From IMG/VR virus record IMGVR_UViG_2939121850_000001: DNA of 64,000 nucleotides. One strand, written 5' to 3'. Each line of letters opens with the position of its first letter. Position 1 is the first letter of the stretch. Shown here piece by piece: positions 57,191-60,222 of this stretch. Under the pieces are notes generated by a model. The model was given only the letters and a program-made list of their open reading frames with translations, was not told the DNA's origin and ran no database searches. The position numbers and the translations under genes are program-made. Source of the stretch: a virus. Lineage: Duplodnaviria; Heunggongvirae; Uroviricota; Caudoviricetes.

Positions 57191-60100
57191 ATTCCTAAGA
57201 TGTCATGAGCAACACCTCGAGTGTCCCCCTTACAAGACACAGAACGTCTGGCAAAAAGAGGTTCCACTCTGAAGCCATTGTCATGATAAAGCTCTCTGAT
57301 GTTTGGCGCGCCACTGTTAGTAATGAGAACCTTTGCACCTCGGCGATGAGCATCCGTCAACAGAGACACCAGGCGTTTTTGCTCTTCAAACTTAAAGTCA
57401 TGACCGGAATAGTTCGTGAATCCCTCTGTATTTGGAAGCGGTTCATATGGCGGATCGCAAAAAATGACATCTCCTTCTCCGGCAGCTTCAATCACCGCAG
57501 CAAAATCACCACATACAAACTCAGAACGACCTTCCGCACCGAGGAAGGCTTCCATCTCCTGTAATGGGAAATACGGAGTTTTATACTTCCCATAACCGAC
57601 ATTGAACTCACCGGCCTGGTTGTAACGCGTCAATCCGTTAAAACAATGTCGGTTCAGGAACAAAAACGCCGCTGCGCGATGTAAATCATCATAGACTTGT
57701 TTGTTAAACGCATTCCGTACTGCCAGGAATCCCTCCTGGGTGTTGTAGTCCAAGAAGAAACGATGTGCCAGAGTGATAAGTGAATGCGCCTCGCGTTGCA
57801 GAGTCTTGTAAAAGTTAATCAGGTCAGCATTCACATCATTTAGCAGATTTTCCTGGTATCCGGCATTCATGAAGACAGCTCCACCACCGACGAAAGGTTC
57901 AATCAGGCGCTTCCCTTCTGGCAAATAGCGAAAGATTTGTTCCAGAACACCAAATTTTCCACCAGCCCATTTGAATATGGACCGTTCGAATTCTGCCGCT
58001 GGTTTAACTTTTCGCTCTTTTGTTTCACGCCCTTCATTCTGCCGACATGCAGCCTTGGTTATCCGCTCGCCAATCCAGCGCATTACTGGTATCGCCATAC
58101 TATTGCCGATCGCTTTGTAACGCGGTCCGTCAGCTGCAAGCATTGCGGCCTCTTCTTCGCTTAAATCTGGATAGTGATTGTGCAGATATGCCAGTTCATC
58201 TGAATTAACTTTTTTACGCTTTTCCGTAGGGATCAACGTATGCCAATCAGGAAAACCTTGCAGCCTTTCACATTCGACAGGGGTAAGACGGCGCATTCTA
58301 CCGTCGCCGAGCAATACAATTGGTGCTTCATGGTTACATGTCAAAGTTGGTGCCGAATTATCGGTTTTTATCTCAGCCCCTCCTTGCCCATGTGCCATGG
58401 CAATTATGTTTGTATCATCGCAAGTTCTGATAGCGATGTTTGAAGTATATCTGGTAGTTTCCTTCCCCTCGCCTCTGCTCGGCGCAATATTCCGGCGCAC
58501 GCCTTCGAACTCAAAAAGTACCGTTGCGGGATCGAGGTCTGTTCGAGCACTTGCGACAACAAACACGCGTCGGCGTCGTTGTGCCACTCCGAAGTATTGG
58601 GCATCAAGGATTCTCCAGGCCACTTTTCGCTGCGGTCCATAAATACAACCACACTGCGGCCACTTTGGAACATGGCAACCGGTTTTGCCATCCCACCGCC
58701 AGAACGCGTTGCTTTTTCCTGATTCAGGTCGATCACCTGGTTCAAATGGCACATCTTCTCCAGCCAATCCGGCAAGGAAACATCCGAAGGCGTTATCTGC
58801 CGATGACAAGACTCCTGGGACATTTTCCCAGACGATAACGGCTGGTTTGAGAAATGACTCAGCCCGTTTGTCGTCAATTGCATTTGCAAGCTCCACATAC
58901 TTTAAAGTTAGCGCGCCACGCTCATCATCAAGCCCACCACGTAATCCCGCGATACTGAATGCCTGACAGTTATGGACCACCGCACCATTGAGGATATAGG
59001 AATGATCACCTTCGACTTCTATGTTGTATACAGTATCTAGGCCTACCGATTTAAACTCTTTGACTGTTCGTAAAAGCATTCCATGAGCCAATCTTGATTT
59101 ACGTGACAATTTCTGCGGGCAGATTGTTACCTGATAATAATTCCGTTGATTTACCACGCGATCCTCGATCACTTTTTTGGGCTCAACTTCAATAAAGCTG
59201 ACCGAAGAAACATAACCACAAGTCTGTGACAACCCCGCAACGCCCCAAGCAAGCGCAGGACTAACACTATTAATTCTAAATCCCGCTTTACCACTTGGTG
59301 TCCCATCAGTATCAAGATAGCCTTGTAAAAACACATGACGCAATGGATGCGACATCACCCATGCAGGGATACGCTTAGCATGGCTTAACTCGCCAAAATG
59401 TTCATTAAGCCAATTGGCATAACACGTATCATTCAAGGTTACTTTGATGCTCCCTCGGATTTCGCTTGCCACGGAAAATATGTTTTCTGGTATGCGGCAA
59501 TGAAACTTTCTCAATTTCTGGCAATTTATGCCAAAAACAACCGCCTTCTTAGATTTACCTCTCCATCTCCTAATATATCCATCGCCAACATAAGCGCCCG
59601 CAAGATACATAGCCTGTTCTTCAGACAAGAACCGAGAACAAATATCTGGAGATGCAATATTGAAATTAGTTAGAGCGCACCATTGATATCCCGGCATATC
59701 ACATGCTGCTCGCCATTCCGGTTCAGACAACAACTCTCTCTTAAAATATGTGCCATTTTTCCGGGTGTTTTGGGCTTTCCACCGAACAGCCAGGAAGGGA
59801 TGGTCATTGGTTGTTCTTATACCTAAAGGCTGCCCAACGGCATTAAGTAACCCCGTATTAGCTATTTTTGAACCAACTCTTTTTACTTGTTGTAACCGCC
59901 CGAGATGACTGACTACGTAATCGCCAGGGCAAACATCTTCTATTGGTTTATAGCCATTTTTACAAAGAACCATATGCCCCGCGGTAAAACATGGTGTTCC
60001 CCCGACGAGCACGTCAGGGGATTCGATTTCCCCAGCCAAGACTTTTTTGGCAAGTTTTGTCATGTCGCCAAGGTTGACAACATGGGGCCAGCGGAGCGCA

Positions 60101-60222
60101 AGAACGGCCGATGGAAAAGGCTCGATTTCAGCAAACCACGCCGGACGCATACCCAACGGTTCCCAGGCAATACTCGCGGCTTCAATTCCACTGCAAACAG
60201 ATCCATAGCACAGCTCTTTCAC
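57181..60222 (-). CDS. dmt: bifunctional DNA methyltransferase Dmt (N-terminal C5-cytosine MTase + C-terminal Dam-like N6-adenine MTase) with an in-frame intein
   Basis: C5-MTase motifs ENV and QRRRRVF, catalytic PC-QAFSIAG split by insert; Dam motifs FKWAGGK and FCDPPYEP. Confidence 0.85.
58969..59991 (-). other. intein (341 aa) with LAGLIDADG homing endonuclease domain, inserted at the C5-MTase PCQ catalytic motif
   Basis: Starts CFTAGHMV, block [17 protein letters not shown]-like [12 protein letters not shown] and [10 protein letters not shown], ends ILNGAVVHN followed by +1 Cys. Confidence 0.85.

Follow-up and report, generated by a model that had tools for sequence, protein, structure and literature searches.

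An endonuclease-bearing intein at the catalytic cysteine of the Dmt methyltransferase of P1-like phage-plasmids

Background

What is the insert of more than three hundred residues that splits the catalytic motif of a phage DNA methyltransferase, and how might the enzyme and its passenger coexist? The question is raised by the dmt gene of a tailed virus (Caudoviricetes; IMG/VR record IMGVR_UViG_2939121850_000001), of which a stretch of 64,000 nucleotides, called the window below, was analysed as a whole. The gene is the dmt of a P1-like phage-plasmid. Its product associates an N-terminal C5-cytosine methyltransferase, interrupted in its motif IV, with a C-terminal N6-adenine methyltransferase of the Dam type. 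Few phages of Escherichia coli are as widely used or as tractable as P1, and inteins of the PI-SceI type, with their endonuclease, are textbook elements. To our knowledge, E. coli itself is normally treated as an intein-free host. A first-pass annotation, made from the sequence alone, had proposed that the insert is a full-length LAGLIDADG intein. The results presented here identify it as a class 1 intein with a LAGLIDADG homing endonuclease, located between Pro77 and the catalytic cysteine of Dmt, which probably splices, restores the C5 active site and homes.

Results

The insert in dmt is a class 1 intein

The dmt precursor is encoded by a single open reading frame (ORF; 57181..60222, on the minus strand like all the features given below). 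According to the ORF list of the window and its translation, it starts with a GTG codon and specifies 1013 amino acids (aa; ~113 kDa). In this translation, the segment CFTAGHMV opens at residue 78 and CQAFSIAG at residue 419, which gives the insert a length of 341 aa (~38.3 kDa) and places it at window positions 59991 to 58969. These 1023 bp are in frame, contain no stop codon and lie between Pro77 and the cysteine of motif IV. The first-pass annotation had placed the insert exactly to the base, with the correct lengths for insert and gene, and all the motifs that it quoted are present. The insert has a guanine-cytosine content of 43.1%, lower than that of the N-extein (54.5%) and of the C-extein (48.4%).

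The insert (58969..59991) consists of a Hint splicing domain into which a LAGLIDADG homing endonuclease domain is inserted. Block A (59953..59991) carries Cys1, the N-terminal splicing nucleophile. In an alignment with 44 relatives Cys1, Phe2 and Gly13 of this block are invariant, and Ala4 and Gly5 nearly so. Block B (59785..59823) includes the TxxH motif Thr61-Asn-Asp-His64, whose Thr61 and His64 are invariant in the relatives. The first LAGLIDADG motif (block C, 59572..59607) reads YLAGAYVGDG and includes the acidic Asp137. It is followed by block D of the endonuclease (59356..59382; HAKRIPAWV), with a Lys206 that is invariant in the 44 relatives, and by the second LAGLIDADG motif (block E, 59299..59331; FLQGYLDTDG), with the acidic Asp229, in the region matched by the Pfam profile LAGLIDADG_3. 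Block H is present as well. Blocks F and G together with the +1 residue cover 58966..59034 and provide Asp329, His340 and the terminal Asn341, block G reading NGAVVHN directly before the cysteine. The window intein hence possesses both a complete splicing set (Cys1, Thr61/His64, Asp329, His340-Asn341 and Cys+1) and a complete nuclease set (Asp137, Lys206 and Asp229). It includes 11 cysteines, counting Cys1, and Cys+1 follows.

Profile searches recognise both domains, far above the level of chance. The insert matches Pfam LAGLIDADG_3 (E=2.8e-7 at 31.1 bits, 31-35 bits overall, for a cutoff of 22.5), Pfam Hint_2 (E=2.2e-6; 28.6 bits for a cutoff of 28.4) and the NCBIfam model of the intein C-terminal splicing region (TIGR01443; 28.9 bits for a cutoff of 15.6). 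A sequence search of the PDB gave weak matches, the best being the Spl DnaX mini-intein (E=0.0013, over the last 42 residues) and PI-PkoII (E=0.027), and a comparison of folds was therefore needed. A single-sequence AlphaFold2 prediction of the insert was unusable (predicted local distance difference test score, pLDDT, of 31) and was superseded by a model computed from the 44-sequence alignment (pLDDT 96.3; predicted template modelling score 0.92). In this model, helices 124-137 and 218-229 terminate exactly on Asp137 and Asp229. The best Foldseek matches in the PDB are the inteins PI-SceI (E=1e-16), TliVMA, PhoVMA, PI-PfuI and PI-TkoII, with E-values ranging from 1e-16 to 3e-9. In addition, its central domain resembles two LAGLIDADG enzymes that stand alone, I-DmoI and I-SceI (E-values from 7e-5 to 2e-4), in line with the alpha-beta-beta-alpha-beta-beta-alpha core of such nucleases. 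Profiles and predicted fold thus agree with the full-length LAGLIDADG intein first proposed, and the insert is a class 1 (Hint) intein with a two-motif LAGLIDADG homing endonuclease.

The same annotation had equated the +1 residue with the motif IV cysteine of the methyltransferase. After in-silico splicing, Dmt aligns with M.HhaI across GFPCQAFS, which identifies the +1 residue as the cysteine of motif IV; its counterpart in M.HhaI is Cys81, the catalytic nucleophile of that enzyme. Other kinds of insert were considered. A group I intron or a free-standing homing endonuclease gene is ruled out, the insert being in frame, free of stop codons and bounded by Hint blocks at both ends. A bacterial intein-like domain is ruled out by the endonuclease domain, by the canonical His-Asn followed by Cys at the junction and by the insertion at a conserved site.

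Occupied and empty sites in P1-like elements

The insertion site exists in both filled and empty form. In a five-way protein alignment, P7 Dam (672 aa) and the reference P1 Dmt (754 aa) are uninterrupted at the site, and the window, the P1 isolate OP279344 and RCS47 share an identical 341-aa insert. The empty site is precise in P7, in reference P1 and in plasmid alleles, where GGTP is followed directly by CQAFS (with a G74W change in reference P1). At the DNA level (insertion point marked ^) the intein-less dmt site reads GGTACGCCT^TGTCAGGC; the sites of P7 and P1 read GTCGGGGGTACGCCT^TGTCAGGCATTCAGT, and that of the L005 type reads GGAACACCT^TGT (L numbers designate individual loci).

The plasmid database PLSDB was searched both for the junction and for the intein. 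With a 600-bp extein sequence spanning the junction as a query, 496 records were matched. The site is uninterrupted in 361 of them, and the remainder (~130) are split exactly between nucleotides 231 and 232. With the intein DNA as a query, 132 plasmids were retrieved, 120 at an identity of at least 99% and the lowest at 98.9%. Occupancy thus amounts to ~27% of the P1-like dmt alleles in PLSDB, ~73% being empty. The hosts of the intein in this database belong to Escherichia, Salmonella and Shigella. Among complete E. coli genomes, 151 of 5426 (2.8%) carry the intein, always at an identity of at least 99%. The copies in these genomes are located on plasmids (147) or on records labelled as chromosome (5), and the latter may represent P1-like elements that have integrated, or errors of assembly.

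The intein is also present in a sequenced isolate of P1 itself (OP279344.1, L001; 'del res del mod', host MG1655 Z1). Its protein is 100% identical to that of the window, and its dmt has the short target-recognition variant described below. The classical reference P1 has neither the intein nor the short variant. Since this isolate was propagated in a laboratory K-12 strain, an experimental system already exists.

One plasmid copy lies in a disrupted gene. In L015 (NZ_CP012497.1), a 1-nt deletion in a GGGGG run 11 nt upstream of the intein truncates dmt at codon 93, and RefSeq calls the remainder 'LAGLIDADG family homing endonuclease'. This frameshift could correspond to a real pseudogene or to a homopolymer sequencing error.

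The intein is less diverged than the gene that carries it

A set of 17 dmt alleles was aligned, 9 with the intein and 8 without. Among the intein-plus alleles, mean divergence is 0.58% in the intein versus 3.28% in the exteins, and in the most extreme pair it is 0.98% versus 7.35% (Fisher p ~3e-16). Divergence in the intein is 5-7 times lower than in its carrier gene. As judged from sequence divergence, this shows the intein to be younger than its host gene.

The flanks of the intein-plus alleles do not form a clade but are interleaved with those of intein-less alleles. L015 and the intein-less reference P1 have identical C-exteins, the C-extein of the window differs by 1-2 nt from those of the intein-less L005 and L006, and the Dam region of L001 is nearest to that of the intein-less L010. 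The intein is moreover found with both the short (672-aa extein) and the long (754-aa extein) target-recognition variants. Flank markers linked to the intein stop at unequal distances, less than 24 bp downstream in L015 and ~125 bp in L004. Upstream, the codon of Pro77 (59992-59994) is CCA in 9/9 intein-plus alleles and CCT in 8/8 intein-less alleles, and L013, L014 and L016 show a cluster of synonymous changes within 20 bp of the junction that occurs in none of the 8 intein-less alleles. The CCA codon and this cluster may represent remnants of the original donor flank or changes that confer target-site immunity.

All nine sampled intein copies are open and none has an altered catalytic residue. 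They differ at 20 variable sites, 10 synonymous and 10 non-synonymous. The low diversity of the intein, its mosaic flanks and its presence in two specificity-domain variants would fit a recent horizontal spread by homing or recombination. Such a pattern is that expected of a recently spreading homing element with co-conversion, and general recombination among P1-like elements could give the same one.

Related inteins occupy the same site in other methyltransferases

A protein search retrieved inteins 47-53% identical to that of the window in other C5 methyltransferases, with the junction GG(T/V)P^C...HN^CQ(A/S)(F/Y)S. Copies that are ~30% identical occur in actinobacterial enzymes, with the junctions SPE^C...N^CTNHS and GGSP^C...HN^CQDVS. 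A profile search extended the family to 72 proteins, most of them PF00145 members, with a distinct subgroup in HNH/McrA-like proteins. Members of this sister group (P0025, P0050, P0051 and P0054-P0059) show 21-25% identity and the junction R(D)(K/R)NT^CF(T/A)AGT...AVHN^CQ(Y/F)CG, their insertion being located directly before a zinc-finger-type Cys-x-x-Cys.

In total, the Pro-Cys site of motif IV is filled by related inteins (24-53% identical) in dozens of other C5 methyltransferases, some of them encoded by phages. Among the 31 relatives with both junctions in motif IV, the -1 residue is proline in 27 and glutamate in 4. Eight positions are invariant in the 44-sequence alignment (Cys1, Thr61, His64, Gly132, Gly138, Lys206, Gly224 and Asn341), and Asp229 and Cys+1 are nearly invariant. 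The nuclease residues are kept in relatives down to ~22% identity. Conservation of these residues across the 44 relatives indicates that the splicing and nuclease sites are under long-term selection in this intein family.

A tblastn search of phage genomes identified copies in Mannheimia phage vB_MhS_587AP2 (47.7% identity), Propionibacterium phage B22 (30.6%) and E. coli jumbo phages such as ph0011 (27.5%), with further matches in Lactobacillus phage Nyseid and in methylases of Cluster F mycobacteriophages (~27%). Those of B22 (gp50), ph0011 and the Mannheimia phage are inserted at the same Pro-Cys site, and that of Pacc40 (gp60, an N-4 methylase) at another site. The copy of the Mannheimia phage (L019:1264-3584) has a frameshifted C-extein (CQSDKGG followed by a stop codon further on), and the remainder of the methyltransferase is a separate coding sequence. 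An HNH homing endonuclease gene lies directly downstream of it, and the N-terminal protein is found on 578 contigs of Mannheimia haemolytica. Database names such as 'Hint domain-containing protein', 'DOD-type homing endonuclease' or, for the frameshifted plasmid copy, 'LAGLIDADG family homing endonuclease' hint at the family.

The dmt gene and its surroundings

The window dmt and that of the P1 isolate OP279344 share 98.2% identity along their entire length. Compared with intein-less phage records, its exteins show ~95.6-97.8% DNA identity, the lowest value being that of P7 dam (95.6%). Gene order is as in P1 and P7 (uhr-hrdC-dmt, then tRNA-Asn and tRNA-Thr), with hrdC upstream of dmt and the tRNA genes downstream; the GTG start of dmt overlaps the end of hrdC/rdgC. 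Three tRNA genes follow dmt, as in P1 and P7: Met-CAT (54848-54923), Thr-TGT (56355-56430) and Asn-GTT (56433-56508). The ORFs listed in 56007-56580 are spurious translations of tRNA genes.

Pfam recognises the D12/Dam domain (PF02086, 191 bits) in the C-terminal part of the protein and the C-5 methylase domain (PF00145, 108 bits) in four stretches broken around the insert. After in-silico splicing, C5 motifs I, IV (PCQ), VI, VIII, IX and X are all present and in order. The N-extein (residues 1-77; 59992..60222) comprises the region of motif I and the first half of motif IV and ends with DVLVGGTP, the -1 residue being Pro77 (codon CCA). The C-extein, with its stop codon, covers 57181..58968. 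It begins with CQAFSIAG, which includes the motif IV cysteine, and continues with motifs VI (ENV) and VIII (QRRRR), a variable target-recognition region, motifs IX and X (GNSMAIPV) and the Dam domain, whose DPPY motif lies at 57445-57456.

The variable target-recognition region (58294..58566), located between motifs VIII and IX, is of the short type in the window; longer variants, at least two of them, occur in other P1-like elements. The region behaves as a swappable cassette, and extein lengths of 672, 754 and 862 aa are observed among P1-like dmt alleles (e.g. L003, L004, L006 and L012). The cassette variants presumably correspond to different target-recognition domains, hence to different 5-methylcytosine (m5C) specificities. 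The possibility that the 862-aa Dmt (L006) carries a second mobile insert was rejected: Pfam gives two methyltransferase domains only, and the additional sequence was taken as a third target-recognition variant.

The Dmt of the reference P1 c1.100 mod749::IS5 (AF234172; L003:3001-5265) reads LVWGTPCQ, with Gly74 replaced by Trp within motif IV. The change is absent from the natural, nearly identical alleles L007 and L008, and the laboratory reference P1 may have reduced C5 activity because of it.

Discussion

Proposed mechanism and alternative explanations

The reading that we consider probable is that of an active class 1 intein. The 113-kDa precursor would splice autocatalytically, through an N-S acyl shift at Cys1, trans-thioesterification to Cys+1, cyclisation of Asn341 and a final S-N shift. 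The products would be a free 38.3-kDa endonuclease and a 74.8-kDa Dmt in which the active site GGTPCQAFS is rebuilt. Since the site would be rebuilt only upon splicing, m5C methylation would depend on it; the separate C-terminal Dam domain may act even in the precursor. When intein-plus and intein-less P1-like elements meet in one cell, the free endonuclease would cut the empty site, and repair from the intein-plus allele would copy the intein together with a flank of variable length (homing). Cuts made by LAGLIDADG enzymes have 3' overhangs of 4 nt.

Several points weigh against this reading. According to one paper (PMC6486613), natural and engineered inteins were previously non-functional with proline at -1 or +2; with Pro77 at -1, the precursor could thus splice slowly or not at all, unless this intein family is adapted to it. 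The dmt gene was non-essential in a CRISPR interference (CRISPRi) screen of P1 (PMC10695390), so selection for splicing may be weak. Hint_2 is barely above its cutoff, Pfam Intein_splicing reaches 18-22 bits, below its cutoff of 35.8, and the NCBIfam scan of the protein gave the C-terminal intein model alone, with no N-terminal one. The 10:10 ratio of synonymous to non-synonymous variable sites would indicate only moderate constraint on a short time scale. Finally, P1-like elements recombine extensively, which could produce mosaic flanks and an intein of low diversity even if the nuclease were inactive.

This last point leads to an alternative in which the intein splices but its endonuclease is inactive or decaying, its spread resulting from homologous recombination between co-resident P1-like phage-plasmids and from clonal expansion of successful plasmids rather than from homing driven by the nuclease. 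The dmt gene is indeed mosaic away from the intein too, with swapped target-recognition cassettes and different nearest neighbours for the Dam domain and the N-extein, and half of the variable sites of the intein are non-synonymous. However, both acidic residues of the LAGLIDADG motifs and the block D lysine are intact, and conserved in the 44 relatives down to the most distant ones (~22% identity); the nine sampled copies are all open, and a 5-7-fold lower divergence than in the flanks, combined with linked tracts that end at variable distances, is the classical pattern of co-conversion. Loss of endonuclease activity is thus considered unlikely. The proline at -1 suggests instead, if the incompatibility reported for many inteins in PMC6486613 holds here, an intein-derived insert that does not splice and inactivates a dispensable C5 half, Dam working within the 113-kDa fusion. 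As dmt is non-essential, such a non-splicing parasite would be tolerable, a view also in line with the degenerate contexts met elsewhere (the frameshifted C-extein of the Mannheimia phage and one E. coli plasmid copy in a frameshifted dmt). Yet Cys1, the TxxH motif, Asp329, the terminal asparagine and Cys+1 are conserved in a family where proline occupies -1 in 27/31 cases, which needs selection for splicing, and C5 motifs I, IV, VI, VIII, IX and X are all intact in the exteins of intein-plus alleles. This conservation argues that these inteins may cope with proline, and a non-splicing insert appears very improbable to us.

The view that the 341 residues are a native accessory domain of Dmt, or unrelated DNA inserted in frame by chance, could draw on the modest Hint_2 score alone. 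It conflicts with the precise absence of the insert from P7, reference P1 and 361 PLSDB records, with an intein fold predicted at high confidence and a full set of intein blocks, and with homologous inserts at the same site of unrelated C5 methyltransferases. The first-pass annotation had stated that intein-less Dmt homologues holding the same 341 residues would speak against an intein. The alignment with P1 Dmt disposes of this case, the insert being missing from P7, P1 and many plasmid alleles, and a native domain is rejected on these precise empty sites and, together with the predicted fold, effectively refuted. Taken as a whole, this explanation has next to no probability.

A more speculative elaboration of the active intein, beyond the role of a selfish passenger, is a post-translational switch that would uncouple the two activities of Dmt. 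Dam would act from the precursor, and m5C methylation would appear only after splicing at a difficult Pro-Cys junction, perhaps under redox control. The redox aspect is suggested by the 11 cysteines of the intein, Cys1 among them, and by the Cys+1 that follows. We regard such a switch as decidedly unlikely. If it existed, it would reveal a natural intein family adapted to proline at -1, of use for protein engineering.

Significance

A natural, intact endonuclease-bearing intein segregates among P1-like phage-plasmids whose hosts are E. coli, Salmonella, Shigella, E. albertii and E. fergusonii. With it, a system is at hand in a model organism in which intein homing can be studied both by experiment and by population genetics. 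The Pro-Cys of motif IV of C5 methyltransferases emerges as a site of repeated insertion in phages that are far apart. Should splicing be confirmed, the Dmt intein would constitute a natural case of splicing with proline at -1 and its family a source of naturally proline-tolerant inteins. There are also consequences for annotation: proteins of 1013-1095 aa are now named 'Dam family methyltransferase' only, a name accounted for by the NCBIfam scan, and methylome predictions ignore the split cytosine methyltransferase. What makes the system valuable is that it is tractable, that its insertion site at the catalytic cysteine recurs and that its junction has proline at -1, not that it reveals a new principle.

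Comparison with known systems

Inteins in phage methylases have already been published. The mycobacteriophage N6_N4 methylases DNMT-1/2 carry inteins (Kelley et al. 2016, PMC5050341), the Dorothy_75 family of actinophage methylases has inteins with evidence of horizontal transfer (Gosselin et al. 2023, PMC9957025), and a 2025 survey of actinophages lists C-5 methylases (IPR001525) among earlier-reported intein hosts (bioRxiv 10.1101/2025.01.02.630785). The first-pass annotation knew of no intein either in P1 Dmt or in phage DNA methyltransferases generally; these three reports contradict its second part, and the first part stands as far as searched. The literature search found no report of an intein in P1 Dmt, in P1-like phage-plasmids (Punavirus, RCS47) or at the motif IV catalytic cysteine. 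No mention of P1, Dmt or enterobacterial phage-plasmids was found in the actinophage methylase-intein papers, as far as searched; the main text of Novikova et al. 2016 does not mention methylases, and dmt goes unmentioned in a study of 77 P1-like phage-plasmids. Novelty is thereby narrowed to the host: phage-methylase inteins, C-5 hosts included, are known, and P1 Dmt is a new host as far as searched.

The Dmt intein shares its architecture with PI-SceI (S. cerevisiae VMA1), TliVMA, PhoVMA, PI-PfuI and PI-TkoII, in which a Hint domain is split by a two-motif LAGLIDADG endonuclease, and Cys1, TxxH, His-Asn and Cys+1 are common to all. However, sequence identity is only 11-17%, and the hosts of these inteins are V-ATPase, ribonucleotide reductase or polymerase rather than a C5 methyltransferase. 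The Dmt intein is also smaller (341 aa versus 361-537 residues in the matched chains, PI-SceI having ~394-448) and, unlike these matches, has proline at -1.

The actinophage methylase inteins, too, are LAGLIDADG endonuclease inteins in orphan DNA methylases of phages, they are sporadic, and their transfer between divergent methylases has been shown; those of the Pacc40 type are ~27% identical to that of Dmt. In contrast, the hosts DNMT-1/2 are N6/N4 methylases, the junction is QMHV^CLARG...VVKN^CPLQ (Pacc40), and the phages infect Actinobacteria. The unannotated inteins of Mannheimia phage 587AP2, B22 and ph0011, and those of many metagenomic proteins, are homologous to the Dmt intein and share the junctions GG(T/S/F)P^CF(T/V/P)AG...VVHN^CQxxSxAG. 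They nevertheless belong to other phage and methyltransferase lineages, and none of their hosts is a bifunctional C5 and Dam fusion such as Dmt.

Finally, P1 Dmt and P7 Dam without the intein, as annotated by Lobocka et al. 2004 in AF234172 and AF503408, offer a direct comparison. They have the same gene, the same synteny and the same bifunctional C5 and Dam architecture but lack, precisely, the 341-aa intein, and reference P1 differs further by its long target-recognition variant and the G74W change.

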